Below the pieces are notes generated by a model that was given only the letters and a program-made list of their open reading frames with translations, searched no databases and had not been told where the DNA came from. Below, one piece after another: positions 10,430 to 31,800 of a DNA stretch of 64,000 nt. Position numbers and translations under genes: made by a program. Position 1 is the stretch's first letter, and each line of letters opens with the position of its first letter. The stretch covers positions 26,971 to 90,970 of the forward strand of contig JAFDZV010000036.1 of the NCBI GenBank assembly GCA_018266795.1, given 5' to 3'. This DNA is from Bacteroidota bacterium. GTDB lineage: Bacteria > Bacteroidota > Ignavibacteria > OLB7.

Positions 10430-10485
10430 GGGAGGGCGGGCGCCGCCGCCCGGGGCTGCTGCAGGGGAGAATGCAGACGATTGCA

Positions 10486-10684: not shown

Positions 10685-13600
10685 ATGGCTTATTTCAATC
10701 GACATCCGGACTCCGCTCTCTACACCTCGTCGCAGGGATACGGCGGCGGTTACGTAGCGTTCTATCTCTACGGCGACGAGTTCCCGGAGACGCTGACGAT
10801 ACCGGACACGTGGGAGACCCGTGTGGGCTACTATCTCTTCCTGAAGGAGCCGCCTCCGGAGAACGGAATGACGACGTTCGTCGCCGCCGTCAACGGAGCG
10901 CTTTCCGGTTCCGAACCCTGCCATACCAGCTTTGTCTGGTACACCTACAATGGGGCGGATGGATCGCTTGTCGAGATCAAGACGGTGAGTACGAATGCCG
11001 TTCCCGTGGATGACGAGGAAGGGGAGGATCCGGACGAGGACGAGGGGGAGGAGGATTACGAGGACGAGTACACGGTGCTGGTAACGGAGACGGCGCTCTT
11101 CAACTTCGGTGGCTACAAGCTCCCCATCGGCGTGAACATGCGTGTGGTGTACGAGCGCGACGGGGGCAACGACGTCACCGGATTCATCTTCGAATATCCG
11201 GAGGATCCGCAGCCGCGGTATCCGGCGGAGGCAGTTGTCGGGCCGCCCGATCCGCAGCGCAATCTTCACCTGACGTTCAATGGGGATGGCCGAGGATGTT
11301 TCGAGGGGATAGGCTTCATCAGCGATTATTCCGACGATGAGGAAACCGGCTGGTATGTCGGACTGCGATATGTGCTGGCAGTTGGCTGCGGGCTTGTTCC
11401 CCAGTATTACCCGGTGTTCGATTTCGGCGATGAATTGCGTCCGCTGCTCGAGATGCGTTGGGATCCGACAAATCATCTCGATCGCAACCGAACATATCTG
11501 GCATTTACCGGAGAATCGATTGCGCTTGTGGAGGACCCTCCGGATTCCGGCGTGTTCCGGCTGGAGGTTCCGGACAGCCCGGAAATCCTTCCCACATTCT
11601 TTCGTACGGTTACCGGTGAGCGCATAGCCTTTATTCCGGTTACCGAGGGAGAAGGCCGGTCCAAGCTTCTGTTCGAGACACGCGATACGGCTCCGATTGA
11701 ATGCGGCGGCTTCTGCTACTATCTGGTGCCTGCCGGCGAGTTCGAACTGCTGCTGCTGGACGAGTGCGGCGACCCGCTGACGCTTGCTTCCCAGAAGGCG
11801 GAAATGCCCGCCCGCTTCATGTGCGGCCTCTCCGGCATCGAGTCGGTGGGTTTCATGCCGCGCAACGAGTGCTTCGATGGCGATCGCATTCTCTTTGTTC
11901 CGCATTGCGATGCCTTCGTGCCGGCGTTTCCGATCAACGGAAACGGGGGCGGCCTTCCGGATCTCGACGCATTGCGTCTGATTGTGGAAGGGGAGTGCAC
12001 TGCGTGGGTTGGATTCATCGGGCCGAACGGCGAGGCGCGCGAGTTCGTGTACTATGCCCAGCCGGAGGATGCTCCACTCTACACGCGGCCCGGTGTTATC
12101 GCGGGAAGTGCACCGCTTCCGCTTATGGAGCCCGTGGCAGCGCTGTTCGAATCGGTATGCAGCCAGACCTGCTTTCCGGTGGCGCCGCCGGCGGGGGCTT
12201 ATCCTTCCGTTGATGCACCGAACCGTCCAACGTTTCTGAGCGCTCTGGAGCATCAGATCATAGGCCCCTGGCGCCGTGATGTGATCCGCAGAACGGCTGC
12301 GACGGCGCCGGATATCATGGAGCCGGCGACGTCCAAGCCAAGCGGCACTGGTGCCACCCCGCAGGGGTTGATCGCCGATGTTGCAGTGGATTCCTGGACG
12401 TCGCTTCTCCTGGCACAGAACCAGCGGACAAGCACTGTTCTGCGATTCTGGTATCCGGATGAGACACTGAAGGCAGCGTTCCAGACAAACCAGTTGTTCC
12501 TGGTTGCATCGCTCGCGAGCCATTTCACGATACCGAATCCGCAGCAGCCAACGGACAGGCGCTTCGAATCGCGGGTGAACATGGCGGATTGGAAGTTCGA
12601 CCTCAAGCTGTCGGGGAACCAGTTTCAGCGTCTCGACAATCCTGCGGCAGATGATTTCCATGATCTCAACAACACGCTGATCTTCAAGTTCTCGCCCGGC
12701 TCCATCTCAAGCCGGCTGCGCGATCCACGTTCGTGGACCAATCCCGGTGACTTCAATCGTACCAACGATGGGCTGCTCGATCTTCTCGCGCAGCGTCTCT
12801 CGGCATATGTCGCATATGCCAGAACACTTGCCTCCAGCAACGATCCCAAGGTCAGGGCCAGATATGCGCCGTTCATCGAGGTGATCGATGACGATGAATG
12901 GACCGGGATAATCGGTGTGAATATCTCGATCGACATGCAGCTGCTTCCATCGCAGTTGAGTGCATTGAGCGCAGGGGTTGATCAGAATTTCTTCGTGGCG
13001 CATCACATCGTGGTGGAGACAAGCTATGTGAAATTCTCCGAGCAGGGACAGGGACTCATGCCCGCCGAATGCTCGCTGTTTGGTCTGGTGGATTACAAGA
13101 GGCGGCAACCGGCTGTGCCACAGGGAGACGGCGGTAACACTGCTCCTGCGGCGGACTTCGATTTCTCCGTGAGCGACTTCCTCGCCGTGTTCCGTAACGG
13201 GTTGCTCAAGGAGTTCTCGTGCGCCGCAGATCTGAAGATCAACAGATTGTTCGGGGACAACATTACCGGGCTGACCGGAAATGATGGCGCAACGAACAAC
13301 GGTATTCGTCTGATCGGCCAGTACGATGCGCTCAGCAACACGCCGTCGTACGTGTTCACTCTGGAGGGTGGCGGGCAGTTCCAGCTTCAGAGCGCCATTC
13401 TCGAGTGGGTGGAGATTCGCAAGGCGCAGTTCTCGGTTCGGGAGGAGGCCGTGCCCAACAGGGGAAAGGACATGTATTGTGCCTTCGTCTTCTGGGGGGT
13501 CATGAAATTCCGCAGCATGGGGCTGACGGGGGACGCCGGGAACCTGGATATTTTCTCCTACGATGCGCTTGCATTCGAAGGAATGGCGCTGCGTATGAAG

Positions 13601-14260
13601 TTCAACATGGATTCGCCATCCGACAGGACATTTACCTTCGACAGCAGAACGATCGCTCTGGATACGGCCCCCGCGGTAACTATTCCGCGCGGCCAGAGCC
13701 TCGCAAAGAAATTCCCGATGCGGCTGCAGACGTTCATGTCATCGGACGCGGGGAAATTGCCCAAGGACCTGGGATACGTGGCTGTGGGTACGCAGTTGGC
13801 AGCGCAGCCGGTTGCGGCGCCATGGTATGGTCTCGACTATACGCTGAACCTCGGCACACTTGGTGAGTTTGCCGCCAATGCCGGGATTACCGTGCAGCTT
13901 GCCGTTACGTGGAGCCCTGGAGGGCCTTCGCAGCCACGCGCCCAGGTGTGGTTGAAGTTCCCGGGTGTCGGCGGCATCGGGAATGATCTGTTCAGCCTGG
14001 AGGGGGTCGTGAAATTTTCTGCGAGCTCGTACAGCCTGAAGGCCTTCACTGACGACGACGATATCGGATACCTGCTGACGCTGAACAGTATGGCGCTCCG
14101 CATTCTCGGCGTTGGAATTCCGTTCGGAGGCGGGCCGAATATCTACGTCTTCGGTCCGCCCAAGAGCCCGGCCCTGCTGAGCCCTACGGCAACGCCGAGC
14201 GACGATGCCCTGGGCTGGTTTGCCGTGTATCCGAAGCCTGCACCTCCGGGCGGCGGCTGA
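10685..14260 (+). CDS. Large hypothetical protein (1,191 aa) with an acidic N-terminal stretch and several Cys clusters.
   Basis: The long ORF has non-shadow composition. The likely start is MAYFNRHPDS, because the upstream in-frame part is an Arg/Pro-rich shadow. It contains the acidic run DDEEGEDPDEDEGEEDYEDEY and Cys-rich segments (ECGGFCYYL, CGDPL, FMCGLSG, NECFDGD, PHCDAF). No recognised catalytic motif. Confidence 0.65.
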   Translation: MAYFNRHPDSALYTSSQGYGGGYVAFYLYGDEFPETLTIPDTWETRVGYYLFLKEPPPENGMTTFVAAVNGALSGSEPCHTSFVWYTYNGADGSLVEIKTVSTNAVPVDDEEGEDPDEDEGEEDYEDEYTVLVTETALFNFGGYKLPIGVNMRVVYERDGGNDVTGFIFEYPEDPQPRYPAEAVVGPPDPQRNLHLTFNGDGRGCFEGIGFISDYSDDEETGWYVGLRYVLAVGCGLVPQYYPVFDFGDELRPLLEMRWDPTNHLDRNRTYLAFTGESIALVEDPPDSGVFRLEVPDSPEILPTFFRTVTGERIAFIPVTEGEGRSKLLFETRDTAPIECGGFCYYLVPAGEFELLLLDECGDPLTLASQKAEMPARFMCGLSGIESVGFMPRNECFDGDRILFVPHCDAFVPAFPINGNGGGLPDLDALRLIVEGECTAWVGFIGPNGEAREFVYYAQPEDAPLYTRPGVIAGSAPLPLMEPVAALFESVCSQTCFPVAPPAGAYPSVDAPNRPTFLSALEHQIIGPWRRDVIRRTAATAPDIMEPATSKPSGTGATPQGLIADVAVDSWTSLLLAQNQRTSTVLRFWYPDETLKAAFQTNQLFLVASLASHFTIPNPQQPTDRRFESRVNMADWKFDLKLSGNQFQRLDNPAADDFHDLNNTLIFKFSPGSISSRLRDPRSWTNPGDFNRTNDGLLDLLAQRLSAYVAYARTLASSNDPKVRARYAPFIEVIDDDEWTGIIGVNISIDMQLLPSQLSALSAGVDQNFFVAHHIVVETSYVKFSEQGQGLMPAECSLFGLVDYKRRQPAVPQGDGGNTAPAADFDFSVSDFLAVFRNGLLKEFSCAADLKINRLFGDNITGLTGNDGATNNGIRLIGQYDALSNTPSYVFTLEGGGQFQLQSAILEWVEIRKAQFSVREEAVPNRGKDMYCAFVFWGVMKFRSMGLTGDAGNLDIFSYDALAFEGMALRMKFNMDSPSDRTFTFDSRTIALDTAPAVTIPRGQSLAKKFPMRLQTFMSSDAGKLPKDLGYVAVGTQLAAQPVAAPWYGLDYTLNLGTLGEFAANAGITVQLAVTWSPGGPSQPRAQVWLKFPGVGGIGNDLFSLEGVVKFSASSYSLKAFTDDDDIGYLLTLNSMALRILGVGIPFGGGPNIYVFGPPKSPALLSPTATPSDDALGWFAVYPKPAPPGGG

Positions 14261-14371
14261 GGTATGCGTGCGATCGTACACCTGGCCAGGCCCGAAATGC
14301 CGGGGACACGGATCCCGCCTGAAGAGAGAACGAACCATCACAACAAACAGTCACGACTCAGGAGAGAAGCC

Positions 14372-15637
14372 ATGCGCAGAATCAATGCGGCGGTATATCT
14401 GCTGCTGTTAACCATAGCGGTCGCAGCGCACGCTGCTCCAATGCAGACCTTGAAGATATACCACATCGGTGTGGGGCAGGGAGATTGCACATTCATCATC
14501 GCGAAAAAGGAACAGTCCAGGAAAGCACCAATCGTTGTCAGTGCGTTGATCGATGTTGGTTCCGGGCCGATCGTGCGAGCGGGGCGCGATCCAGCGTTGC
14601 TTTGGGCTGCCCTCCTGCAGATTATGGGCGAGAATTCAGTGCCGACGATCAATTATCTGATTCTCTCGCACCTGGATGAAGATCACATGGGGGCAGCGGA
14701 GGGATTGCTGTACGTTCTCGAGCGTCCCAATTTCAAGAAATATGCCAAGGGAATGATTGTGGTGGACAGAGGATGGCTGGACCCATCGACGAAGCCGACG
14801 GGGACAATCTATACCGGATTCGAGGGGCGTTTCGGAACCGGAAAGCCGTGGAGGCGGAAGAAGATTGATGTGAAGGAGAATTTGTTCGATGGCTACTTCG
14901 ACAACATGAAAATGTGGTGCGTTGCCGCCAACGGAGTGTCGCTGCAACCGAGAAATGGTGATCCGACAAAATGGAACAGGAGAGTGCTTGTACCGTCTGG
15001 TTCCCTGAATGAGAACGATCGCTGTTACGGTTTTCTGATCGAGTTCGATGGCTTCCGGTACTTCACGGCCGGCGATATGACCGGGTACGACGTCGACAGC
15101 CAGCACAATATCGAGCTTGGGTTCTCCGATTTTCTTACCCAGTGCATGCAGCGTGCGCAGCCCTCGGATGGGAACTGCCATGTCTGCTGCCTGAAGGTAA
15201 ATCACCACGGCAGTATCAACAGCACCAACCCGGATTTCGTGACCGCCACAAAGCCGAGGCTTGCGGTATTCTCGTCGGGTCTTCAGATGTTCAGCAACGG
15301 GCGACTACCACAGCAGGCCGTTGCAACACGGCTTCGGACAAATAACGCAGCGTGCAGTTTCTTCTACACCTACTGTCCCACGAATATTGCCGATCCGTAC
15401 GACGGTACGGTTCAGGACAACGATCCACTTTTCTTTACCGATCAACTGGATCGATGGCAGGATATCGTTGTCTCTGTTTCCCGCCCGAGTGCAAATCTCG
15501 TGGCAAATCGATTATACGGCGATGATATCACGATGAAGGTACAGGCCTGCTATCGTGATCGGTCCACGTTTGCCCGCACATCCAATCTGCGTGATCTGCC
15601 GGACGTTGTCTGCAGCAAGAAACACCCTGCACCGTAA
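14372..15637 (+). CDS. Secreted stand-alone ComEC/Rec2-type metallo-beta-lactamase-fold domain protein (putative nuclease or hydrolase), 421 aa.
   Basis: SD ggagag sits 6 nt upstream of the ATG. The signal peptide is MRRINAAVYLLLLTIAVAAHAAP. ComEC-type MBL motifs are present: KIYHIGVGQGDCTFII, ALIDVGSG, LILSHLDEDHMGAAEGL and KVNHHGSINSTNPDFVTATKPRLAVFSSG. Confidence 0.7.
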   Translation: MRRINAAVYLLLLTIAVAAHAAPMQTLKIYHIGVGQGDCTFIIAKKEQSRKAPIVVSALIDVGSGPIVRAGRDPALLWAALLQIMGENSVPTINYLILSHLDEDHMGAAEGLLYVLERPNFKKYAKGMIVVDRGWLDPSTKPTGTIYTGFEGRFGTGKPWRRKKIDVKENLFDGYFDNMKMWCVAANGVSLQPRNGDPTKWNRRVLVPSGSLNENDRCYGFLIEFDGFRYFTAGDMTGYDVDSQHNIELGFSDFLTQCMQRAQPSDGNCHVCCLKVNHHGSINSTNPDFVTATKPRLAVFSSGLQMFSNGRLPQQAVATRLRTNNAACSFFYTYCPTNIADPYDGTVQDNDPLFFTDQLDRWQDIVVSVSRPSANLVANRLYGDDITMKVQACYRDRSTFARTSNLRDLPDVVCSKKHPAP

Positions 15638-15653: not shown

Positions 15654-18600
15654 ATGAGCCTTCAAACCTTCTACAATTCGCTTGGTGGAGACACCCCGCC
15701 GAATCCGATTGTCTTTGAGCTGGATGAGGATACTGTCGATCCGATCCTGATGCTGCTTACGCTCCTCGAGGTGGATCGGCTGGAGGTCGACATCGTTGGT
15801 GAGGGTGAGCATGATCCGCCATTCGGCATGGTATATACCGCGGACGACCAACCCATGACGATTCGTGGGAGCGCCGAGATGTACGGTGTTGCAACGACCG
15901 TGCTTCTTGTGTTCGTTCAGGACGCCGAGACCGATGCAATCCAGGGAACCCTTACAGCAGCGCTTGATATTACTTCGATTCAGGCGCTCTCGGATTCCGG
16001 TATCGCCGTCATCGCCAACATGGCGGACATCGCTGCGATGCCCGAAGCCGGAGTAGTGCTGGAGGTACTGGGCAATCTTTCGTTGACCACGTCGACGGCC
16101 GATCGCACGTTCGTTGTTCAGTCCGGGATCAAGGACGGAACCACCCGTGTGTTCCAGTCGCCCGCGGTTTCATTTACCGGATTGAACGTACGGGTTGATC
16201 GCGTCATTGGCGATCCGGCCTCGGAAGATGGGCCTGGTGCTCCTGTCACGACGTTGAGTGTAAAGGGGGCGTTCACGGTCTGCGGCCAGGCGCTGGACGT
16301 GACGGTGGATATTCCCGTTGGGGGAGTGGGCTCCACAATGTGGCGCTTCGCATTCACCAGTCCAACCGGATTCGGTCTCGATTCGCTTGTGGATCTGCTC
16401 AATGCATTCGGTGTCGGCGGGCAATTCGCTGCACTTCCCGATCGCATCAGATTGCTCTCCGCATTCCGGTTCATGGGCTTCGAGGTGATCGCCGATCCCT
16501 TCCCGTCGATCGCAAGCATCGAGGTCCTCTTTGCGATCACCGGCGACTGGAACGTCGTAGACACCGTTACGCTGCACAATATTACGTGCTCGCTGCTGGT
16601 CCAGAATCCGTTCAACGGACCATCTGCGCTTCTGAGGGCGAGCGGTGTGTTTACCGTTGGCGGCATTGATCTGGGGACGACACTGCTTATCCCGATAGGT
16701 GGTGGTAACTGGCTCGTGCGGTGTACAACCGACAGCGACAGCATCAATCTGCTCACGATGTCGCAACTGCCGGGGCGCTTCGACCTGAGCTCGCTTCAGG
16801 CACCGATCGGCACACAACAGCAGCTCGATGTTGTTCTGAACGATCTTACGGTTGTCTTCAATCCCATTGCGCGCACAATTGGAGCGATCTCGATCGCAGT
16901 GCGATATGCGGCTACGTGGAATGCCCTTGTCTACAATGGCGAGACGGTACTGAGCGTAACCAATCCTCAGTTCGTGATCGCCATCGATTCACCTCTGTCG
17001 AATAATCGCCGCGTCACGGCAAGCATCTCAGGGTTCGTGGCCTTTTACGATCTGATCAATGCGAGTTTCGAGATGACCAGATCGGGAGGAAGGTGGGCGT
17101 TTGCCGCCGAGACCACCAAACCGATTCGTCTCCAGGCGATCTTCGACAAGTTTTTTCCAACGTATCCGGAGTGGCTGGACGCGATCAAGGGATTTTCAAT
17201 CACCCAGATCGTGTTCAATTATACGACGTCGGGCGGGAGCCAGCCCGGTGTCTTCAATCTGAGTGCCCGCATCGAGGCCAATTGGGATTATGCACTCGGC
17301 GGCCAGACCGGTTCCATTCAACTGACCTCCATCAGCGCATCGGTTGGATCGCAGCCCGATCCTGCTCAGCCTGCGCAGCGGATCTGGACGTTCGCCGTTG
17401 CCGGCACCGTGCGCCTGTACGACACGTTCAACCTGACAGGCTCGTTCCAGTATCGTACAGGCAATGGTCCCGGATCGGGTGCCGAGATCGCCGTCGAGTT
17501 CGATGGCGTGCGTGGTGTCTACAACTCCACCAACAAGCGCATCGACGTCTCACTCGGGAATCGCACCGTCGGCGATCTGGTAAATACGCTCAACCGATTG
17601 GTCAACGGTCCCGCCACGCCGGACTATCAGTTCGAGTCGCCATGGGATCTCGTTGCCGGCATCAGCCTGCAGGGGCTGGTATTCAGCTTCTACTTCGACG
17701 GCAACAGCCAGAAGCGCTGCGGTATCACCTATCGTTTCCCGACGCCCGTCGATCTCGGCTTCATGAAGATTGTCTCGGTCTCGGTGATTGTGACGACCAC
17801 CAAGAAGATTCGCTTCGAGGCCGACGTGATTCCGTTCACGGCAACAACGCCGTCGCCGTTCGGATGGAATCTCGATGATGCGAATGTCCCGAAGCCGCCG
17901 GGCCGCTCGGCACGCATCCTCGATCTCAAGTACCTCGGCATCGGCCAGCGGCTCGAGCTGATGTCGGCGAATGCCACCCGCTCCGTTGACGACGGGATCG
18001 CTGCGATGAAGACCGCGTTCGCGATCCCGTCGGCAACCAGCCATCCGCTTACAGGCATGCAGGCCGGCCTGCGCTACAACCCGCAGATGAACTGGCTTGT
18101 GGGGGCGGACTTCCAGTTGTTCGGGGCGTTGGCGATCGGCTTCATCTTCAACGACAGCAACATAGCCGGTGTGCGCGTTGGCGTGGATGGCGATCGCTTC
18201 CGCTATCTCGGCGGCCTGAAGTTCGAGATCCTCTACAAGAAGGTAACCGAGAGCATCGGCGTGTACCAGATGGAGATCCGCGTGCCGGATTCCATCCGCC
18301 AGATCGAGCTGGGGCAGGTTTCGATCACGCTTCCGATCATCGCCTTCGAACTCTACACGAACGGCAATTTCAAGGTGGACTTCGGATTTCCGAAGGACAA
18401 TGACTTCTCCCGTTCGTTCATGATTCAGGTGTTTCCATTCCTGGGAGCCGGTGGTTTCTACTTTGCGCTGCTGGAGGGGGCAACATCGCCGCGTCTGCCG
18501 GCCAACTACAATCCGAACACCGGTGTGTTCCGTCCCGTGTTGTCGTTCGGCATCGGGCTCAGTCTGGGAGTGGGCAAGAGCATCAACCGCGGCATCTTCT

Positions 18601-21600
18601 CGGCGCAGCTCAGCATCACATTCGAGGGAATTCTGGAAGGGGTGATCGGCTTCTTCAACCCGACGAGCGGGAGCGGAACCGAGATCTACTACTGGCTTCA
18701 GGGCACGCTCGGCGTGGTTGGCCGGATCCAGGGAAGCGTGAGCTTCGCCGTCATTTCCGCAAGCGTCTCGCTGGTTGTGTACGCGCGTATCGGGGCCACA
18801 TTCGAATCATACCAACCACTCGTGCTCTTCTTCGAGGCCGGTGTGGATGTGAACCTTACGGTGCGCATCGGCGTTGGCTGGCTGAGCACCGATGTCAGTT
18901 GCTCCTTCTCCACCAGCATCCGCGAGTCGTTCACGATCCCGGTGCGCGGCAATGGAACGGCGCCGTGGGTTGGCGGCGGCCAGCATGCGTTGGGCCACGG
19001 CGCCGGGCCGCACGGTATGATCGGATCGAGTGCGGTGGCGCCGAAGGAAATGGGGGTTCTCCGCTGGAGAACGATCGACATGGCCGGCACGGGCGACGAA
19101 GTTCTTCTGGAGTTCCGTCCGATGTATACCGTGGCGGAAGGGCCGAACGGCCAGAAGTCCAACTACGTGGCAATGCTGTTTCTGCGCAGTGCATCGCAAT
19201 CGGAACGCGAGAACGACCATCGGACTGTCAACGAGATTCAGGCAACGGACTTTGAGGCGCTTGCAACCGGCATGTTGGTGTGGGCGATCAATGCATCGGT
19301 GAATGCCAACAACCAGACTGCCGTCAATGCGGGCAACATCGAGACCGAACTCCTTAACAAGGACGTCCGGATTGATCACCTGCAGGAAGTGTTCGATTCT
19401 CTGGCACGCCGGGCAGGAGCGGCTGCGAGTTTCGAGACGCAGCAACTGCTGGATTTCCTCCACCTGTATTTCACGATGGTGATCGTCCCATTGCAGCAGA
19501 ACCGGCATTCACCGAATGGTGGCAGCTCCGATGACCGGCCCACGCTGGCAGTGTTCCCAATGCCGCCGGACCTGGAACTGAAGGCGTTCTACGATGACGC
19601 GACCGTGGCCGACATCGACTTCGCCTCCTACAACATGGTACCGGACAGCTATTCCGGCGAGATCGCCAACCACTTCAAGGAAATCGCCATGCAGTTCCAG
19701 ACAGGGCTGGAAGCGAGCGTTGACGCGAATGAAATGCAGGCTGCGCCGGAGTATACGGGCGACGAAGAGTCCATGGCATCCTATGTCTTCGACGACTATT
19801 TCATGCTCCTTGCGCGTGGGGTGGTACATGCGGCCATGGATCTGCTGAAGAATTATTCGATTAAATCTGCCGGGGAGACTCTTGCCGCCCTGGCGACCAC
19901 CTATGGGGTTTCCCCGGGTGAGGTGGGCGTTGCAAATGCGGATCTGGCGATCACCGCACCGGCCACACTGCAGCTTGGCGGTGTGGCGGTAACCACGACG
20001 GCTACCGATACGCTCGCGGCATTGGCCTCGGACAGGGGGTTCCCGAACGACAATGGTTTCCTGGAGAGCCTCGGTCGCCTGAATGCGCTCACACCCGGAC
20101 TCGTGGCAACGGACACGGCGATCACGATCGGCGACGACTCAATCGATGTTGCAGAAAACGAGACGTTGTACTCCATGGCGACGAGGCTCCATGCTTCACC
20201 GGGTGCGGTTGCCGTCACGATTGCATCGCGGCAGGTGCTCAATGCCGATACGAGGCTGCTTCTTCCAACGGTTCCAACCACGTATCTCACCGTTGGGAGC
20301 GAGCCCAATCTGCGCTGGATCGCGTCCAACTACGTTGCAACGCCGGACTTCCAGTTCGAGACGGACTTCGCGCTCGCGAACGCGTTCGTTCCGGGGATCT
20401 TCGTTCCGGGAACCATCTTCACGATGGCGACCGGAGATGCGTACCAATCCATCGCGTCCGACTCGCTTGCAACAATTGCGGCGGCGGTGGGCTTCACCGT
20501 GGAATCGGTGGCGGGAGCCAGCAACGAGCTTTCCGGCATCATCGCTCCCGGAGTTCGCCTTACCATCCCTCCGGTGTCGGTTGCGCTGGAGGGTGCGCCA
20601 ACGTTGCGCCAGGTGCAGACAACCTATGGAGCCGGCATCGCGGCAGTGGCTGCGGCCAACGCCGCAACCCTTGTGCTGGGTGCGGCGGGCGGTTGCATTG
20701 AGCTGCCGAATGTGAAGAAGATCAAGATCGGAACGCTGAGGAAGGAAATGCTGCAGCGCGATCTGTTGATCGATCTTGGCGGCACGGTCTCGCGATTCAT
20801 GGTGCCGGGCCTGCGGCTGCCGCTCCCGACGCAGCAGCAGAATCCCGAGCCCGGCCTGTGGCCGAACTGCGAACCGGATGGATTGTATCGCCTTACCGGC
20901 CAGCAATTCGAGTTGGACAACCCGCTCGGCGGGCAGAACGGACCCGATCTGGATGTTATGCTGGTTGGCGGAGCCAACGCAGGCTGGTATTCGATGCGCG
21001 GGGACGCGGAGAACTACGAGAACCCCGAGAACGACGAGGTGTATGAAAATCCTGTGCGTGTCACGCTCGAGTGGGCTGACCTCGACAAGCTCGATCAGCT
21101 TGCCGCAGAGCAATTGCTGGTTGACGCGTCGCCCTACCGGAAGATCCCGATGTCGCAGACGCAGTTGAAGCGCTTCCCGCTTGGGCGTCCCGTGCAGATT
21201 CAGATGTCCGGTGCGTTTGCCTATGCCGTTGGAACGGCTCCCAACGGCGTGTTGCCGACCATCCTCAACTTCTCCGAGGGAATGCGCCGCGTGCTGGCGG
21301 TGGCCAGGAATCCGGAGCAGCGTTTCGATCTCGCGCTGGAGCGGCCGGACGGATCCGCTGCGGCGCTGAACGTCTACTCCTGGGCTACGGCAATCACCGT
21401 GAAGGTGCGTCGCGTTCGCCTGCCCGATGGTTCCATTGCTGCAATGACCTACGAGCTGGACGGTGCCGACGCCGAGGGGACGCTGACGCTGGAGAAGATC
21501 GTTGCCAGGGGAGGAACGTCCGGCTTCGGGTTCATTCAGGATATACATCTTCTCTTTGCCGGCCAGGGAGTTGGAGCGTTGCAGACCGACGGGCCGAATG

Positions 21601-24600
21601 CAATCAGTGCCTTCATCCTGCAAACCAATCTCTCCACGCTCACCAACCCGCAGGGGTCGAAGAGCATGGTGGCGGCGAAGGACGTACCGGCTGCGGTCGC
21701 AAATGATTTCAAGGACAACCGTGCCGAGATTCTGCGAGTACTGTGGGAGGGAAGTATCGTTCGCTCCGGCGGATACTATCTCTACTATCGGTGCGGTGGT
21801 GCATCGCGAGGGCTGCCGGACAGCGCGTTCAAGGATGACGGTACGGCGGACATCACGCTGTTGATCACCTATGGCTACGGGGCCGGCAATTATGCCTCCA
21901 GCGGGCTGCCGTCGTTCGTGAACCGGGTGGTAGTGGGGGCGGATGTTACCGTGGCTTCCGTGTTCGCAGTCTCGCACGAGCAGTCGATATCGGTAGCGGT
22001 GAACGGCACCACGACGCTCAGCCAGCTGATGGCCTCGTATCACACAAACCTTGCGGATCTGGCCGTGGACCTTGGCGGACAGGGGCTGAGCGTGGAGTCG
22101 ATTCCCGTTCCCGGTGCAGTGTACCAGGTGGCGCACGGCGGCGAGACGCTGGGCGCGGTTGCCAACCGATTCCATCTTGGCATCGATGCCATCAAAAGCG
22201 CGAACACGGATCTCGATGCGGGCCTCACCGCCGACAGCGAGTTGACCGAGTACCTGACCCTCGTGATCCCGCCGTTCACGCATCCGGTAGCTGCCGGGCA
22301 GAACCTTGCAGGCATTGCCGGCACATACAATGTGCCATTGACCGATCTCGTTGCTCCGCTTGCCGGCTCTGCAATCTTCGCTGCCGGACCGAATGTGAAC
22401 ATCCGCAGTCGCCTGGTAACGAAGTCGCCCACGGTGCCGCCGGGACACACCGGATTCCAGCTGTTCCGCGTGCCTCAGGAGACTCCGACAGTGCATGATG
22501 AGCCCACAGCCGCACAACAGTTGGAATCGCTCTACAGCCTGCTTGCATACTGGCTGGTGCAGAACCAGTGGTGCGATGGAAGCATGGAGGGACTGCCGCG
22601 CGGACCGGGGGAGGAACTGGCGGAGTTCACGGATCTTCCGGACGTGGAGGATCGGTGGAAGTACGAACAGGTACTGCCTGCGTACCGGTTTGTTCACAGC
22701 GCACTCCCGGCCGCCAACCCATATCGAGGGGTGGGTACGCTCGTGGAGATCGGCGTGGATTGGCGCGACGTGTTCGGCAATCTCCTGAACTACGTCTTCG
22801 AGGTTGATGGATGTTGGGGATCGAACGTTCTGCCGATCCGCCTGGGCTACACCGACGAAGTAATCGGAATCGGGCGTTGGCCGTCTGTGCGGTCATCCTA
22901 CAGCATGGGCTTCGATGCGAACTCGAATCCGACGAACGACATCGTACTGGAGTTCGATGTTGCGCGCTACCTGGTTACCCCGGAGGGTGAGCAGGCAAGT
23001 CTGGGGGATGTGTACAATATTGCCGGCGCCGACTACGAAGCATACACGCGCATCGCAAATCAGCTTGCCTGTGCCGATGTCACAGCCTGGGGAAGCACCA
23101 CGCTGGGCGGCCCGTCGCAGCCGCTCAGTATTGCCGCAATCCGTGCCTGGGTGGGAAGCATCGTAAGCTTCCTGGATCAGCTGTTCGCGGTGCTTATCGA
23201 CCCGGATGCGCCGCAGCCGCAGATCCCGGACGATCTCACGCTTCCGATCCCTGCCTCGCTTACAAACAACGAGGCGATCTTCCCGTTGATCGTTCGTTTC
23301 GGCATCGAGCGTACCGGGCGTATCGACGATGCATTCCTCGACATGCCCGCCGTGCGCGAGGCTACCGAGGACATCGAACCCGCCGGGCCGATCAAGGACT
23401 TCGCCGCGAACTTCGAGTGCGTCTATGGGGGGGCGAAGCTGGCCGCGGGCCTCTCGCGTCTGGAGGATACGGAGACCGATTCACGCAATCGGCTCTGGGT
23501 GGTGAAGCTGGGGCAGCTCAACGGCAATAATCGCGACCAGGGCCCATCGAATCCGAACAAACGGTTCCAGTATGCCGTCGACGATCAGCAGCAGGTGTTC
23601 TTCGCACCGATTCCGCTTGCTACGTCACCCATCGGATCGGAAGATCTGAACGTCTACAACTACGTTTCCGGACAGGGGCTGGCCGATGCAGTCACCAGGA
23701 AAACCTACAAGGGGGTTGATCTCGATGCCTGGGCCCGGACGTTCCTGAATGCGGTGGACACGATTCTGCTTCCTCAGTATGCAACTCCGGCACATCTGCT
23801 CGATCTTGGAAGCGCTGCTCCGGCGGGCTCGCGCGCGCTCGAGAAGATTATCGCTGCGAAGCGAATGATTGCCGGCGCCATCACGGGAATGGTGCAGGAG
23901 ATTGGAGACACAGGACGGGGAAACCTGGGCGAGGCCAGCGAGTTCTTCAGTCAGCGACTGCTGGTTCGATTGTCGGCAGCGTATGAAACCGATGCGATCG
24001 TTCAGCTGGGAGTAAACGTGGACTCGCCGTATGCCGATGCGGATACCACGTACGTACCGAAGCTGTATGGGCAGACAGTGGGACGGCGGCCGGGAACGGA
24101 GGAGTCGAAGCCGGAGTTCACGCTCTCCACGGCACGTGTTCCACTGGCACGCGAGAGTCAGTACCTGACATTCCTTTTCAGTGCGGAGACGGCGCTGCCC
24201 GAACAGATGTTCGAGGTGGATGTAGAATTCAACGTCAGCGCATTGGAATACCAGATTGCCGACGTGCCGGGCATTACCGATTATCGCGCGTCATCGTGGC
24301 TCACATTCATCATTCCACCCGACTCGCCAACCGTGCGGGCTGCTGTTCCGGTACCGATCCGGAAGTTCCCGCCCACGCCGACGTTGATCGAGCAGGAATT
24401 GATCACCACGGTTGACGCCACCGATGATGAGGAGGAATACAATGCGCTTACGCTTGCCGAGACGCGTGAATGGCAGTATGCATATACATACGAGCGGGTG
24501 CAGGGGACGCACGATGTAATCTTCACCTCCCCTCGATTCAATGTGGCCAACAGCGAACTGCCTCACGGCATCGGTGCGGAGGATCCCGATCTGTTCCAGG

Positions 24601-25769
24601 CGCTGGCGATGTTCGATCACGCCTGGGATGCCATCCAGCAGGATCTGTTCGATCCGTTGGTCAAGATCAGGCAGGGCGTTGCCGGTGCCGACGACGGCAA
24701 GGCCGATGCCGCTCTCACAGCGTTTGCCGCAATTGCATCCAAGGTTGCATGCGCATGGGGACGCTGGTTGTGCGATCGCGATTTCTACCGGCCGTCGTAC
24801 GGGACGGAAGATCCATACCTGTACGTGGTAAGCGAGGATGATCGCGACATCCTAGTCGAGGCGCAGGTGGTGCGGCGGTTCACGATAGCCGTCAGAGTCT
24901 GCCGCGGCCAGGCGGACGTTCCTCTACCGCGTATAGATGTCGATGGTTGGGAAACCCACCCGGTGGACAACGTATTGCCGGGATGGCGGATATTCTGGTA
25001 TTCAGCAGTAGGAGAGAACGGAACGGAGATCCTGGACAAGGATACTGCTGCGGAGGACCGCCAGCGAACGGTGGTATTCGAAACACTGGATATCCTGAAC
25101 AAGCAGAATGCATGGGGAGGGGTGTACACAACCCGGAACGAGAACATCTTCAACGATGCCGCCTGTAATCCGACTGCTTCCATTCATACGAATCGGGAGT
25201 TCATCTATCGTACTCCGATGGTTCGCTTCGGAAATCTGCTGACCCCACTCATCGAATATGACGGGACGATCGATGTCGGGAGTCTGAGTCCCGCGGAGCC
25301 GAGCCCGAAGGGAATCGGGAGCCACATCGGCACGTTGTTCACGAAGTTCTTCGAAGGGATTCAGAATCCGGCGCCGAACGAGACCCGAAGCATTCGCGTG
25401 GATTGCAGGTATGAGTATCGTCTGGGGAATCCCTATGGGATCGTGAGTCCGATGATCGTTACGCTGCCGATTGCTATGTCGCCGCCGTTCGATTTCCGGA
25501 TACATGCGGACGAGGACGCGACATGCCCGCAGCAGGCTGCCACTTTCACCTGTGCGCTTGCCGATGCGATCACCGCCTGGTACTACGCGCGGTTGCCCGA
25601 GCGGGATCAGGGGCGGTTCATTTTCGACATCGCAGTCTATTCAAGCCTGGGGAATACAGGCAAGCTGCCGATCTACCACGTGAAGTCCTTGCGGTTGAAT
25701 CTGAGCGACGTGAACGATCTGACCGAGGATGATTGCGACGACGACGGTGGCGACGGCACGGGAGGATGA
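15654..25769 (+). CDS. Giant protein, paralog B (3,371 aa), with at least 7 tandem LysM-like modules and the same conserved core as paralog A; no N-terminal signal peptide.
   Basis: The ATG is 16 nt after the stop of the MBL gene, with gaggaag just upstream. Core segment LKFEILYKKVTESIGVYQMEIRVPD...FPFLGAGGFYFALLEGAT is at nt ~18220-18960. LysM-like modules lie at ~19860-20720 and ~22000-22420 (e.g. VYQVAHGGETLGAVANRFHLGIDAIKSAN, HPVAAGQNLAGIAGTYNV, SAGETLAALATTYGVSPGEV). The C-terminal block NAWGGVYTTRNENIF...RTPMVRFGNLLTPLIEYD is shared. The tail is acidic/Gly (EDDCDDDGGDGTGG). Confidence 0.85.
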   Translation: MSLQTFYNSLGGDTPPNPIVFELDEDTVDPILMLLTLLEVDRLEVDIVGEGEHDPPFGMVYTADDQPMTIRGSAEMYGVATTVLLVFVQDAETDAIQGTLTAALDITSIQALSDSGIAVIANMADIAAMPEAGVVLEVLGNLSLTTSTADRTFVVQSGIKDGTTRVFQSPAVSFTGLNVRVDRVIGDPASEDGPGAPVTTLSVKGAFTVCGQALDVTVDIPVGGVGSTMWRFAFTSPTGFGLDSLVDLLNAFGVGGQFAALPDRIRLLSAFRFMGFEVIADPFPSIASIEVLFAITGDWNVVDTVTLHNITCSLLVQNPFNGPSALLRASGVFTVGGIDLGTTLLIPIGGGNWLVRCTTDSDSINLLTMSQLPGRFDLSSLQAPIGTQQQLDVVLNDLTVVFNPIARTIGAISIAVRYAATWNALVYNGETVLSVTNPQFVIAIDSPLSNNRRVTASISGFVAFYDLINASFEMTRSGGRWAFAAETTKPIRLQAIFDKFFPTYPEWLDAIKGFSITQIVFNYTTSGGSQPGVFNLSARIEANWDYALGGQTGSIQLTSISASVGSQPDPAQPAQRIWTFAVAGTVRLYDTFNLTGSFQYRTGNGPGSGAEIAVEFDGVRGVYNSTNKRIDVSLGNRTVGDLVNTLNRLVNGPATPDYQFESPWDLVAGISLQGLVFSFYFDGNSQKRCGITYRFPTPVDLGFMKIVSVSVIVTTTKKIRFEADVIPFTATTPSPFGWNLDDANVPKPPGRSARILDLKYLGIGQRLELMSANATRSVDDGIAAMKTAFAIPSATSHPLTGMQAGLRYNPQMNWLVGADFQLFGALAIGFIFNDSNIAGVRVGVDGDRFRYLGGLKFEILYKKVTESIGVYQMEIRVPDSIRQIELGQVSITLPIIAFELYTNGNFKVDFGFPKDNDFSRSFMIQVFPFLGAGGFYFALLEGATSPRLPANYNPNTGVFRPVLSFGIGLSLGVGKSINRGIFSAQLSITFEGILEGVIGFFNPTSGSGTEIYYWLQGTLGVVGRIQGSVSFAVISASVSLVVYARIGATFESYQPLVLFFEAGVDVNLTVRIGVGWLSTDVSCSFSTSIRESFTIPVRGNGTAPWVGGGQHALGHGAGPHGMIGSSAVAPKEMGVLRWRTIDMAGTGDEVLLEFRPMYTVAEGPNGQKSNYVAMLFLRSASQSERENDHRTVNEIQATDFEALATGMLVWAINASVNANNQTAVNAGNIETELLNKDVRIDHLQEVFDSLARRAGAAASFETQQLLDFLHLYFTMVIVPLQQNRHSPNGGSSDDRPTLAVFPMPPDLELKAFYDDATVADIDFASYNMVPDSYSGEIANHFKEIAMQFQTGLEASVDANEMQAAPEYTGDEESMASYVFDDYFMLLARGVVHAAMDLLKNYSIKSAGETLAALATTYGVSPGEVGVANADLAITAPATLQLGGVAVTTTATDTLAALASDRGFPNDNGFLESLGRLNALTPGLVATDTAITIGDDSIDVAENETLYSMATRLHASPGAVAVTIASRQVLNADTRLLLPTVPTTYLTVGSEPNLRWIASNYVATPDFQFETDFALANAFVPGIFVPGTIFTMATGDAYQSIASDSLATIAAAVGFTVESVAGASNELSGIIAPGVRLTIPPVSVALEGAPTLRQVQTTYGAGIAAVAAANAATLVLGAAGGCIELPNVKKIKIGTLRKEMLQRDLLIDLGGTVSRFMVPGLRLPLPTQQQNPEPGLWPNCEPDGLYRLTGQQFELDNPLGGQNGPDLDVMLVGGANAGWYSMRGDAENYENPENDEVYENPVRVTLEWADLDKLDQLAAEQLLVDASPYRKIPMSQTQLKRFPLGRPVQIQMSGAFAYAVGTAPNGVLPTILNFSEGMRRVLAVARNPEQRFDLALERPDGSAAALNVYSWATAITVKVRRVRLPDGSIAAMTYELDGADAEGTLTLEKIVARGGTSGFGFIQDIHLLFAGQGVGALQTDGPNAISAFILQTNLSTLTNPQGSKSMVAAKDVPAAVANDFKDNRAEILRVLWEGSIVRSGGYYLYYRCGGASRGLPDSAFKDDGTADITLLITYGYGAGNYASSGLPSFVNRVVVGADVTVASVFAVSHEQSISVAVNGTTTLSQLMASYHTNLADLAVDLGGQGLSVESIPVPGAVYQVAHGGETLGAVANRFHLGIDAIKSANTDLDAGLTADSELTEYLTLVIPPFTHPVAAGQNLAGIAGTYNVPLTDLVAPLAGSAIFAAGPNVNIRSRLVTKSPTVPPGHTGFQLFRVPQETPTVHDEPTAAQQLESLYSLLAYWLVQNQWCDGSMEGLPRGPGEELAEFTDLPDVEDRWKYEQVLPAYRFVHSALPAANPYRGVGTLVEIGVDWRDVFGNLLNYVFEVDGCWGSNVLPIRLGYTDEVIGIGRWPSVRSSYSMGFDANSNPTNDIVLEFDVARYLVTPEGEQASLGDVYNIAGADYEAYTRIANQLACADVTAWGSTTLGGPSQPLSIAAIRAWVGSIVSFLDQLFAVLIDPDAPQPQIPDDLTLPIPASLTNNEAIFPLIVRFGIERTGRIDDAFLDMPAVREATEDIEPAGPIKDFAANFECVYGGAKLAAGLSRLEDTETDSRNRLWVVKLGQLNGNNRDQGPSNPNKRFQYAVDDQQQVFFAPIPLATSPIGSEDLNVYNYVSGQGLADAVTRKTYKGVDLDAWARTFLNAVDTILLPQYATPAHLLDLGSAAPAGSRALEKIIAAKRMIAGAITGMVQEIGDTGRGNLGEASEFFSQRLLVRLSAAYETDAIVQLGVNVDSPYADADTTYVPKLYGQTVGRRPGTEESKPEFTLSTARVPLARESQYLTFLFSAETALPEQMFEVDVEFNVSALEYQIADVPGITDYRASSWLTFIIPPDSPTVRAAVPVPIRKFPPTPTLIEQELITTVDATDDEEEYNALTLAETREWQYAYTYERVQGTHDVIFTSPRFNVANSELPHGIGAEDPDLFQALAMFDHAWDAIQQDLFDPLVKIRQGVAGADDGKADAALTAFAAIASKVACAWGRWLCDRDFYRPSYGTEDPYLYVVSEDDRDILVEAQVVRRFTIAVRVCRGQADVPLPRIDVDGWETHPVDNVLPGWRIFWYSAVGENGTEILDKDTAAEDRQRTVVFETLDILNKQNAWGGVYTTRNENIFNDAACNPTASIHTNREFIYRTPMVRFGNLLTPLIEYDGTIDVGSLSPAEPSPKGIGSHIGTLFTKFFEGIQNPAPNETRSIRVDCRYEYRLGNPYGIVSPMIVTLPIAMSPPFDFRIHADEDATCPQQAATFTCALADAITAWYYARLPERDQGRFIFDIAVYSSLGNTGKLPIYHVKSLRLNLSDVNDLTEDDCDDDGGDGTGG

Positions 25770-25823: not shown

Positions 25824-25866
25824 GACGGCGTCTCGTTACTTCGGGTGACGAGACGCTTCGTTTTTA
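25824..25866 (+). terminator. Rho-independent terminator for giant gene B.
   Basis: An 8-9 bp perfect stem (cgtctcgt / acgagacg) with an 11-nt loop is followed by cttcgttttt, 55 nt after the stop and between convergent genes. Confidence 0.6.
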
Positions 25867-25885
25867 GTGCGCACGCTCGTTGCTC

Positions 25886-26938
25886 TCACCGCTCCCGAAA
25901 CTCCTGCGGTGCATTCGGCACCAGTGCGGGATCGGCGAGGTCCAACTCCAGCAACGTCTTTCCGTTGTTCGCCTCCACGCCGACGGTGAATGCGCCGAGT
26001 GATTGGAACGTGTACGCGAGCGTGCGATCCGGGCCAAGCTCCGCCGTCACCACATCCGGTTTGAACGTCGGATGCAGATGAATGGCAACCTGGTTCGACA
26101 TCACCTGCGCTTCGTCCGATGCGGTGACCTCCAGCGTGACGCGGAAGAAGGTCCTGCTGGAATCCACCGGCGTTACCGTTGCGCCGATCCTCCAGCCGTC
26201 GCGATCGGCGAGGCCGCCGAATCTCCCCTTTGCGGGATCGGACGCCATCTCCTCGTTATCCGCGTGGCCGGCGACTCCGCGAATGCCCGGAGCCGGCCCC
26301 TTGAACGTCTGCGCTGCTGCGGGCCGTGCTGCCGCGGCTGCCGTTCGCCAGATGACGCTCGCAAACTTCACCTGATTCTCCTTCGCCTGTTCGATGTCCG
26401 CCTGCACAGTCTCGCCAACCTTCTGTGCCTCCACGGATGCAGCGGTAGCCGACTGCGATATCTCCATCGCCGCCTCCGATCGCAGCTGAGCCGCGGCGGA
26501 TTTCCGCATCGCCCGCTCCGAATTTCGTTTGGCGTCGGCCGCCAGTGCGATCACCTGCCTGGAGACCGAGCCGATGAAGGCGCGCGAGGAGATGGCCGCC
26601 GCAAGACAGAAGCCGCCGTAGATGAAGAACTGCCATCCGGAGAGCTGCGCCGGGTTCGATGTGTCCACCAGTTTGCTGTCCGCGATCTTCAGGAAGAGCG
26701 GCACCAGAAACGCGGCGCCGACACCACGTACCACCGGCTGCCACACCGATGTGTCGGTAGGCACCGGTTGAGCCGGGACCGGCGTGGAGGCCGGATCGGC
26801 GGCCGATGCTCCGGTTGTGTCCGGTTCCGGCCGGCGCAGCGCGGAACGTCCATCCGGAAAGCCGAAGTAGCTGACCAGCCCTCCGAATATCCCGGCGAGA
26901 ACCGTGAGCGTGATGAGAATCGGGATCTGGGTTTCCAT
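25886..26938 (-). CDS. Membrane-anchored hypothetical protein (350 aa) with 2 predicted TM helices, an Ala/Gln-rich coiled-coil-like linker and a C-terminal globular domain.
   Basis: The N-terminus METQIPILITLTVLAGIFGGLVSYFGF and the segment WQFFIYGGFCLAAAISSRAF are hydrophobic. The AAAQLRSEAAMEISQSATAASVEAQKVGETVQADIEQAKENQVKF region is coiled-coil-like. The C-terminal domain GRFGGLADRDGWRIGATVTPVDSSRTFFRVTLEVTASDEAQVMSNQVAIHLHPTF has no match I can name. Confidence 0.6.
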   Translation of the reverse strand: METQIPILITLTVLAGIFGGLVSYFGFPDGRSALRRPEPDTTGASAADPASTPVPAQPVPTDTSVWQPVVRGVGAAFLVPLFLKIADSKLVDTSNPAQLSGWQFFIYGGFCLAAAISSRAFIGSVSRQVIALAADAKRNSERAMRKSAAAQLRSEAAMEISQSATAASVEAQKVGETVQADIEQAKENQVKFASVIWRTAAAAARPAAAQTFKGPAPGIRGVAGHADNEEMASDPAKGRFGGLADRDGWRIGATVTPVDSSRTFFRVTLEVTASDEAQVMSNQVAIHLHPTFKPDVVTAELGPDRTLAYTFQSLGAFTVGVEANNGKTLLELDLADPALVPNAPQEFRER

Positions 26939-28807: not shown

Positions 28808-31800
28808 CTACAGAACAATGCCCGGCGTCCGGAAGATGGCCTCCCACTCGCGTGCACGGTTGTACCAGGTCTGTTCAACGGCCCATGCGCGCGCCCGAGC
28901 GCGCATCGCCTCTTTCGCCTCGGGATCGCGCAGCAGCACCAGCAGGCGGCGTACCGCCTCGGCGACAAACTCCGCCGACCGCGCGTCGCCCCCCAGCAGT
29001 ATTCCGCGATCGGCGATGGTGCTCGATAGCCCGGCCAGATCCGTGCAGACGCAGAGCGTGCCAGCCATCTGCGCCTCCAGCGCCGTGATGCAGTAGGTTT
29101 CGGTGAAGCTGGTGGGGTAGAACCACACGTCGCTCCGGAGGTACTCCTCGGCCAGTTGCTCCTGTCCGACGCGTCCATGATAGAACACGCCGGGCTGGCT
29201 CATGCGCCTGTGGATCAGGTCGCGCAGTGCGCGCGCGCCTGCATCCTGCGACATCTCGATCGCCTTGTCCCAGTTGTCGAAGCCGTAGAACACGTGGAGC
29301 TCGGCATCGGGCAGCAGCTCGCGGATCAGCGGGAAGATGCCCAGCAGCGTATCGAGTCCGCGATCGGGACTGGAGGAATAGATGAAGCGATTGGTGCGAC
29401 GTTCCACATGCCGTTCGAAACGCTCCGGATCGATGCCGTTGCCGGTGAGAATCAACTTGTCCGCCGGCACGCCGTGGATCGAGCAGAAGTTCCGGATGTG
29501 CCATGGGCTGAGGCAGAAGATGCCATCCAGCCGCTCGTAGAAGAACGGGACCAGATCGCGCTCCCCCAGCTCGGTTCCCATGGCATAGATATCGTGCACC
29601 CAGAGGTAGAGCTTCTTCACGCGCAGCGGGTTCTGCAGCACGAACATGTATCGTGATACGATCATTACGTCGATCACGTGCGCATCGATGAAGCGTTCGA
29701 ATCGGGCGTAGTCCAGATATTCCACGCTGTTGTACCGGCCCTCCATTCCATCGCAGCTGCTGAACACCACCACGCGATAGCCCAGCCGGGCGAGTTCCTC
29801 AGCCATGCGCGCTGCTGCCGTCTCCGATCCGCCGATGCCCGCGGAGCCGATCGTTGCCGACGTCCAGGGTTCATACGACGATCCGGTATGGATAACCAGC
29901 AACGGGCGATCGTGCTTCAGCGCCGCCCGCTCCATATTGGAGCGATCCTCCGCACGGAAGGCTTCCGGCATCTCCAGCTCGCGCGCCGCGCGGCTGGTGC
30001 CGCCGAAGTGGAACACGAAGCTGCGTTCGGTGACCGCACACTCGAAGCCCATCTTCCGTGCGCGAAGGCAGTAGTCCAGATCCTCCGATCCGTTCACGAA
30101 CTCCTCATCCAGCAGGCCGGTCATGCGGACCACGTCGCGCCGCACCAGCGTGCAGTAGAACGCCACCCAGTCCCGGCGGTACACGCGGTCGCGCTCCATG
30201 TGGGCCGTGTAGATCCGTTCGGGAGCGATGCCGGGTTCATCCACCCAGCGCAGCTGAAGCGTCCCCTCGAACAGCCTGTTCATGCCGGGGAGCAGTTCCA
30301 TGCCGTCAACCTCCATATGGTAATCGTGCAGCCATCCCTTGTCGCAGTTCGAGAGCGGGTTCACGATCCCCACATTCCCCTCGGCCTCCGCTATCATCGC
30401 CTCCAGCCAGCCGTGCGACACGATCACGTCGTCGTTGAGAATCACGATGAAGGGTGAGGAGCCTGCCCGGATTCCGACGTTCACCGCCTCCGAGAAGTTG
30501 AGCCGCCGTTCGGATTCGATCACCAGCACGGACTCCGGCAGACCCGCCGTCTGCCGCGGGCCGCCGCTGTTCACCACGATGATGCGATGCGGATGCTCCG
30601 TGCAGGCGATGATGCTCCGCACGCACGCCTGCAGATACTCCGGGTTGGCGCAGGTTGGGATCACGATATCGGCGGAGGTGTCCGGCACCGGCTTGTGTGC
30701 CTGCACTTCCACCGACGGGGTTGAGTAGCCGTCGTAATTGCCGCTTGCATCCACGACGAACCCGATCTGCTCCATCTCGCGCACCAGCTCTTCGCGCGTG
30801 AAGCCGGTGTGATGAATCTGCCCCTCCATCGGCTCGTCTCCGAGCGAACGCTGGATTCCATAGATCGTGTATCGATACCAGTCCCGCTCCTCCTGCGTTG
30901 CGGCTGCGAGAAAGGCACGGCAGCAATCGCCCAGATCCGGGAGCTTCAAGAGAACGGTCCCGCCGGGCTTCAACACGCGATACCATTCGCGCAGCGCCGT
31001 GCGCGCGCTTTCGTGGTAGAGATGCTCCAGCGCGTGCTCGCTGTGGATGGCGTCCACCGTTTCGTCGTCGTACGGAATATCATCCAGCGAGAACGTCTCG
31101 TCCACCTCGCGGCCCGGATACTTGTCGCAGTTGCGGTAGTCCAGGTAGCGCTTGTTACCGCTTCCGAGATTCAGCTTCACGATTCCGGTGGGCTGGGTCC
31201 GCTGCCCGGTGCGCTGCCGTTCGAGCACGGCAGCGAAGTAGTCGCGGTTGGCGAGCAGGTTCCTGTCGTTCGGCATCATGGCCAGCGCGTGCTCGTTGTA
31301 CTCGTTTGCCGTTATGTGATCGCCCAGCCGGTCGTGGCTGATGCAGATCTGTACCAGCGGCCCCACGCCGTAGGTGTACGAATCGAGCGGGCTCAGAACG
31401 TCGGGCGCCGGACGAAGGCAGAGCTCGTACCAGAAGATCGCCTCCTCGTAATCCTCCTCGTCGAATGCGATCGATCCCAGAATGAAGTGCGGCTCCGCCC
31501 AGCGGCTGTCCATGGCCCGCGCCAGCTTCGCCTCGGCACGAGCCTGCGAGCGGTACTCCGTTGCCCGCAGCGGATCCTTTCGCGAGAGATTGTAGTATCC
31601 CTTGGCGATTCGCTGCTGCGCGCCGATCCTGTCCTCGATCCATCCGTCCGGCATCGCCAGGAATCGCCTGAACTCCGCGATCGCCGGCTCCTCTCGTCCG
31701 GCGTCCAGATACTCCTTGCCGAGATAGTAGCAGATGCGCGCGTCGTTGCGATAGCGGTCACCGGCAACGGCCTTCTCGAGGATGCGGAGGTTCCGATTCT

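Follow-up and report, generated by a model that had tools for sequence, protein, structure and literature searches.

The short repeats found in two giant paralogous proteins encoded in a 64,000-nucleotide (nt) stretch of Bacteroidota DNA (assembly GCA_018266795.1, contig JAFDZV010000036.1, positions 26,971 to 90,970 of the forward strand; hereafter, the window) are genuine, strongly diverged LysM domains of the beta-alpha-alpha-beta type. A preliminary description of the window had proposed LysM-like modules in both paralogs, here termed A and B, and all eight peptides quoted there were found in the + frames, each of them inside an independently delimited module. The counts and the layout required revision: B carries nine modules in two arrays (19848-20711 and 21984-22403), instead of at least seven in a single tandem run at 19860-22420, and A carries six at 3114-3998, rather than about four at 3120-3860. 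The LysM call itself is not new, the NCBI pipeline naming homologs "LysM peptidoglycan-binding domain-containing protein". The window modules are new, divergent members of the LysM family, and their interest lies in the unannotated giant-protein cassette that surrounds them.

Array 1 of B (19848-20711, + strand; residues 1432-1719 counted from the GTG at 15555) comprises six modules that abut without linkers (M1 19848-19964, M2 19965-20132, M3 20133-20270, M4 20271-20429, M5 20430-20570 and M6 20571-20711; B1 to B6 below). Array 2 (21984-22403, +) contributes three more (B7 21984-22115, B8 22116-22274 and B9 22275-22403). The two arrays are separated by a non-LysM middle domain of 424 aa (20712-21983, +; 1.27 kb), delimited by alignment of B, A and a partial homolog (P0001). 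This domain bears the motifs GLRLP, LTGQQFEL, TYELDGAD and RSGGYYLYY, and no other stretch of the family is as widely conserved. The array of A (3114-3998, +) is colinear with array 1 of B (A1 3114-3245, A2 3246-3398, A3 3399-3548, A4 3549-3710, A5 3711-3860 and A6 3861-3998), and in the same alignment the site of array 2 appears in A as a clean gap. LysM domains typically show G-D/E-T-L where helix 1 begins. In the window, the x-D/E-T/S-L motif is present in B1, B2, B3, B5, B8, A3, A4 and A5 and is substituted in B4 (SEPNL), B6 (GAPTL), B7 (TTTL) and B9 (GQNL); the Asn that follows helix 2 is absent from B3 and B9. The array DNA contains no DNA-level tandem repeat with the period of the modules, indicating that the repeats are old and diverged.

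When whole B was compared with Pfam, LysM was the sole significant family (28.6 bits, E = 1.3e-6), and whole A gave no match. Scored against the LysM model PF01476, whose gathering cut-off is 20.9 bits, array 1 of B reached 22.0 bits and array 2 reached 29.1 bits, and B8 passed the cut-off by itself (21.2 bits). B1, B5 and B9 taken singly produced weak LysM or LysM_RLK matches (E = 0.035-0.14), and the remaining B modules and all six A modules, also scored singly, had no Pfam match. For every module that falls under the cut-off singly, B1, B5 and B9 included, membership rests on profiles, on the fold and on positional homology within the giant-protein family: array-1 regions of family members, B and A included, matched PF01476 at E <= 0.01 in 26 out of 26 cases, with a best value of 8.3e-21, and array-2 regions matched LysM at the same threshold in 19 out of 21. 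The scoring against the LysM model proposed in the preliminary description was therefore favourable for B8, for both B arrays and for the family at large.

A profile of 22 modules, the 15 of the window plus 7 from P0001, retrieved nearly exclusively LysM chains from the PDB, the best being 4uz2 (E = 8e-15), followed by YkuD, Ecp6 and AtlA. A profile restricted to the 11 Pfam-silent window modules matched 4uz2 (1e-12), SleL (6e-5) and AtlA (8e-4), and a family profile of array 2 matched Ecp6 (7.9e-15) and 4uz2 (2.7e-12). The profile for the first position of array 2 (B7) matched 4uz2 at 3.9e-4, which makes B7 the weakest module. A module hidden Markov model (HMM), trained on 912 module instances of the family from which the window proteins and their closest relatives had been left out, recovered in place all nine B modules and five of the six A modules (A1, A3, A4, A5 and A6). 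Moreover, each of the 15 modules outscored 299-300 of 300 composition-matched shuffles, the score of A2, the weakest A module in this comparison, being reached by one shuffle in 300. One could argue that composition alone produces the matches, in an Ala/Gly-rich, high-GC protein devoid of real domains, given the weak single-module Pfam scores and a protein rich in Ala, Gly, Thr and Leu, but we consider this explanation excluded: shuffled sequences of the same composition do not reproduce the scores, module matches are confined to two sites, 116 of 117 members showing not one ahead of array 1, and homologous positions elsewhere in the family attain LysM E-values down to 8.3e-21. The family module consensus ("YTV.aGDTL..iA", "DTf.sIA..Y...La..NA" and "GDTL.svAaryGvtv..La..aNa") keeps the canonical LysM signature, and its conservation across the family points to selection beyond the needs of a spacer.

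The predicted structure agreed with the LysM fold anticipated in the preliminary description, a beta-alpha-alpha-beta unit that typically spans about 45 residues. AlphaFold2 (AF2) was run on B residues 1416-1735 (window positions 19800-20760) with a 26-sequence family alignment, yielding a model with a mean predicted local distance difference test score (pLDDT) of 89.2 and a predicted template modelling score (pTM) of 0.77, in which DSSP delineated exactly six consecutive beta-alpha-alpha-beta units. From the sequence of array 1 without any alignment, pLDDT was 34.5. It should be borne in mind that the alignment includes members with clearer LysM sequence, colinear with B, and that the model partly reflects them. 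The model predicts that the array 1 modules pack into one compact body; a Foldseek comparison of the whole six-unit model with the PDB gave no significant match.

Across the family, LysM modules are restricted to the same two sites. Of 117 members, 94 have two or three modules in array 2 and 10 lack this array. The spacing between the anchors that flank array 1 is quantised: 6 members have about 100 aa there, 61 have about 200 aa and 42 have about 300 aa. When the modules of array 1 were compared as profiles, module 2 paired with module 4 (score 65) and module 3 with module 5 (71), all other pairs scoring 28-53, which identifies a two-module pair as the growth unit: array 1 grows by two modules at a time, at about 100 aa per step. 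Two homologs from Robinsoniella and Murimonas (L042 and L056) have 0-1 detectable LysM modules by the family HMM and conserve the rest of the protein; a third, from Clostridium magnum (L010), has 0 modules, a value that is uninformative because the 1932-aa open reading frame (ORF) read there stops short of the array region. A homolog in a metagenome-assembled genome (MAG) of Methanothrix sp. (L017, 6236-16306) displays eight canonical LysM modules, e.g. TYQVQGGDTLSSIARD..., scoring 46 bits; this locus is either a cross-domain transfer or a binning error.

A and B are 39% identical across 1779 aligned residues and colinear (BLASTP), and the LysM modules are constrained enough to hold number and register between them. 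This constraint bears on whether the window modules could be decayed relics in this lineage, in which the fold was kept as a rigid spacer linking functional domains and ancestral ligand binding was lost. Decay would account for the low scores of the window modules (Pfam E from 0.035 to no match for most), for the substituted canonical motif positions, for the loss of array 2 from A and from the ten members mentioned above, and for Lachnospiraceae homologs with 0-1 detectable modules. However, module number and register persist between A and B at an identity of only 39%, AF2 confidence is high, and the scores of B and A, which fall in the lower third of those given by the leave-out module HMM, lie inside the family range and not at its bottom. 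We therefore regard decay as quite improbable.

Giant gene B extends over 15654-25769 (+) and encodes 3371 aa from the ATG at 15654, according to the ORF list and its translation, the ORF being open from the GTG at 15555. The ATG at 15654 is the likely start, since it is preceded by the Shine-Dalgarno-like AGAGGAAGA, the upstream gene stops at 15637 and the N-termini of B homologs open with MSLQT or MSLET, as B does from that codon. GC3 of the gene is 0.72, and the codon-position GC of this frame (0.64/0.48/0.73) favours it over an antisense ORF of 833 aa at 20196-22697. Giant gene A, its paralog by BLASTP, occupies 1-8741 (+; window ORF 9-8741). Its full-length product has 3278 aa (MBS1913511.1, P0003; "hypothetical protein JST22_16105 [Bacteroidetes bacterium]"), and all 2910 residues encoded in the window are 100% identical to residues 369-3278 of that entry, the window edge thus cutting A 368 aa past its start.

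An exhaustive profile search for the family returned 1239 representatives at E < 1e-3, of which 402 remained at the stricter E < 1e-30 (clusters at 50% identity), most members being 3000-4300 aa long; a word-indexed search with the array region had found one partial homolog. Some 130-150 of 151 representatives are conserved with B from around residue 650 through to the C-terminus. In a scan of species genomes, 68 loci from more than 10 phyla carried the family, belonging to Bacteroidota, Acidobacteriota, Bacillota, Actinomycetota, Alpha-, Beta- and Gammaproteobacteria, Planctomycetota, Cyanobacteria, Eremiobacterota, Spirochaetota and the Methanothrix bin, the closest being a syntenic locus of a Candidatus Kapaibacterium MAG (86% identical). 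The distribution across phyla is patchy and plasmid-borne copies exist. On the conjugative plasmid pBRH02 of Mycetohabitans rhizoxinica (L070, 4769-15968), the giant gene is split into two genes, of 1115 aa and 2615 aa, lying 10 nt apart; it is annotated as "LysM domain-containing protein" and preceded by a gene for a 252-aa protein and by a homolog of p1259, the partner introduced below, and the proteins of this operon gave no Pfam match. A further homolog lies on an Azospirillum plasmid. Culturable carriers of the family include Rhodopseudomonas palustris BisB18 (NC_007925.1, at about 3.19-3.21 Mb), Chitinophaga, Tenacibaculum and M. rhizoxinica with pBRH02 (WP_013436640-42).

Outside the LysM modules, B and A have no match in Pfam, NCBIfam, PADLOC or PHROG. 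In the PDB, neither the profile of the middle domain (21 members) nor that of the highly conserved core found a match, nor did a phmmer search of B against all PDB sequences, and our literature searches found no description of the giant-protein family. Two fragments (P0156 and P0157) made up solely of the family's most conserved core, corresponding to about window positions 17616-19022 in B (FEILYKKVTESIGVYQ...YTNGNFKVDFGFP...GGFYF) are named "glycosyl hydrolase, partial" by NCBI. This name found no support in Pfam, NCBIfam or PDB searches; were it true, LysM plus hydrolase would be a classic pairing. A subfamily of about 4000 aa (P0011, P0012, P0020, P0026 and others) has an extra N-terminal region opening with "IR[IMF][FY]VDG.PG.GHQ", a motif that resembles a nucleotide-sugar-binding glycine loop and is not in B or A.

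Upstream of B lies the gene that we call p1259 (10481-14260, +), a 1259-aa ORF with a probable start at ATG 10685 (about 1190 aa). By tblastn, 62 of the 68 loci, across phyla, have a homolog of p1259 upstream of the giant gene, indicating that p1259 is a conserved partner of the giant protein. It has no match in Pfam, NCBIfam, PADLOC, PHROG or, by phmmer, the PDB, and it was rejected as a paralog of the giant protein, to which it is unrelated in sequence.

What the arrays do is less certain than what they are. We favour, with a probability of roughly 45%, the reading in which they are glycan binders of a giant protein released non-classically. The arrays would form the carbohydrate-binding part of the giant protein, with polymers that contain N-acetylglucosamine, such as peptidoglycan or chitin, as ligands. 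The family-wide conservation of the canonical LysM signature speaks for this reading. The giant protein, probably together with p1259, would exit the cell without a Sec or Tat signal, either by a lysis-type release or through an unrecognised export step, and once outside, the arrays would anchor or target it to a cell wall. An extracellular life is hinted at by the Big_5 Ig-like domain (Pfam) of the homolog P0011 and the "Ig-like domain-containing protein" annotation of the Azospirillum homolog, by the window neighbours, a collagen-repeat protein and a metallo-beta-lactamase (MBL)-fold protein with a signal or anchor, and by the patchy, plasmid-borne occurrence of the cassette, as is often the case for toxins and adhesins. 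Methanothrix has no murein; provided that the eight-module homolog is correctly binned to it, this speaks against self-murein being the sole ligand. Tight packing of the modules is compatible with glycan binding, since Ecp6, CEBiP and CERK1 are compact multi-LysM bodies that bind chitin.

Several observations weigh against glycan binding outside the cell. Eight of the nine B modules and all A modules stay below the Pfam cut-off when scored singly, and the window modules are degenerate, as illustrated by SEPNL or GAPTL in place of GDTL. Among 49 six-module members ranked with the leave-out HMM, B is 13th and A 9th from the bottom. No signal-peptide-like N-terminus was found in 113 of the 114 full-length members inspected, B and full-length A among them, with a simple heuristic based on hydropathy and charge. 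The absence of a visible Sec signal noted for B in the preliminary description therefore extends to the family and to the recovered N-terminus of A, and by this heuristic neither paralog shows the Sec, Tat or other recognised N-terminal signal that usually accompanies exported LysM proteins. A hydropathy scan detected no transmembrane (TM) segments in B or p1259 and no signal peptide in p1259, and no secretion genes are conserved within about 10 kb on either side of the giant gene.

The lack of signal peptides, family-wide and in p1259, fits the main rival to glycan binding, namely that the LysM modules are structural or protein-binding and hold the giant protein, or a complex of it with p1259, together inside the cell or in a particle. 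LysM has a part in protein assembly in contractile-tail baseplates (P2 gpX, pyocin R2 PA0627) and in the VgrG-effector pairs of the type VI secretion system (T6SS), and a T6SS study reports a LysM domain that assists VgrG-effector interaction (PMC10673891). In addition, 5 of the 21 family array-2 regions match the Pfam family Phage_tail_X (PF05489), and the arrays are internal, linker-less and, at a pTM of 0.77, predicted to be compact. In contrast, sheath, tube, VgrG and other baseplate genes are not conserved near the cassette, the family was not found in 50,697 phage records, and the arrays of B match PF01476 and not Phage_tail_X at E <= 0.01. On balance, a structural role appears less probable than glycan binding and more probable than decay of the modules.

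The glycan-binding reading could be taken one step further. It is conceivable, although we hold it only tentatively and with less conviction than glycan binding itself, that the arrays provide target recognition in an undescribed, horizontally mobile two-gene system whose products would leave the cell with no signal peptide and have cell walls as their site of action. Such a system would pair the partner of about 1200 aa with a giant of 3000-4300 aa and might represent large toxins, adhesins or wall-remodelling machines of a new class. The two-gene cassette ranges from Bacteroidota to Actinomycetota, Cyanobacteria and the Methanothrix bin, and has no known domains outside LysM.

Other neighbours are less conserved than p1259. 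Besides it, the only recurrent one is an upstream protein family of about 230 aa, present in 16 loci, which has no Pfam match and no counterpart in the window; in other genomes it sits where the window has the collagen-repeat (G-x-y) protein (9053-10429, +), between A and p1259. Only the repeats of the latter account for its matches to phage tail-fibre PHROGs and to models of collagen-like adhesins, and conservation of its C-terminal part is limited to the two closest loci (L002 and L003). Between p1259 and B lies the gene of the 457-aa MBL-fold protein (14264-15637, +), which has an N-terminal hydrophobic signal or anchor and weak matches to the ComEC MBL domain, LmuA and Avs1a-type MBL proteins, and is found in 5 of the 68 loci. 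An intrinsic-terminator-like hairpin (25827-25867, +), with a 14-bp stem and a T run, lies 58 nt past the B stop, the terminator scan having found one hairpin against 0.1 expected, and likely ends a + strand operon. This arrangement suggests that the collagen-repeat gene, p1259, the MBL gene, B and perhaps A too form one or more + strand operons ending there. Immediately downstream and on the opposite strand, a protein with YLATT (three TM segments) and prokaryotic YEATS domains (25886-26938, -) is conserved only in the Kapaibacterium locus. Farther away, a 1206-aa multidomain enzyme (28808-32428, -) combining glycosyltransferase (GT) family 2, tetratricopeptide repeat, methyltransferase, second GT2 and GT4/GT1 domains may be a megaenzyme that modifies polysaccharides, encoded close to the cassette.

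LysM is the sole recognisable element in the giant family, as the rest of the protein is covered neither by a solved structure nor by any model of Pfam, NCBIfam, PADLOC or PHROG. The arrays are thus the only point from which experiments can approach the giant protein and its partner, and they raise the question of how a normally extracellular glycan-binding domain works in proteins that carry no export signal. Knowledge of how LysM repeats are constructed would also gain from the two-module growth unit and from the compact six-unit body predicted here.

Among known systems, LysM proteins of contractile baseplates (P2 gpX, PF05489; pyocin R2 PA0627; LysM chains of extracellular contractile injection systems) are each a single, small protein whose gene lies among tail genes, whereas the giant cassette has no conserved adjacent tail or baseplate genes and its family is absent from the phage records searched. 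Membership of a phage or a contractile injection system was rejected, there being no shared domain or neighbour genes and no PF05489 match in the B arrays at E <= 0.01. Tc (ABC) toxin complexes offer an analogy only, being very large, encoded by several genes and devoid of signal peptides although they act outside the cell, their exit being attributed to a lysis-type release. Membership of the Tc family was likewise rejected, since Pfam revealed no VRP1, Neuraminidase-like, TcA_TcB_BD or Rhs/YD domains in B, A or p1259. Outside the LysM units, no part of the system (B, its middle domain, the core or p1259) resembles any PDB chain in sequence, solved TcA structures included.

Within LysM itself, the eukaryotic triple-LysM proteins (Ecp6, CEBiP, CERK1, NFP and LYK3) are secreted, disulfide-stabilised, made of three units and bind chitin or lipo-chitooligosaccharides, whereas B has six plus three units and no signal peptide seen by the heuristic. 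Among the closest known domains are those of bacterial LysM proteins (PF01476), such as the Thermus P60 pair (4uz2), B. subtilis YkuD, E. faecalis AtlA and B. cereus SleL. Known bacterial LysM domains occupy one or the other terminus of wall hydrolases exported through Sec and are usually joined by flexible Ser/Thr-rich linkers. In contrast, the modules described here are mostly under the Pfam threshold singly and are internal, linker-less and arranged as a two-module super-repeat within a signal-less protein of about 3400 aa.

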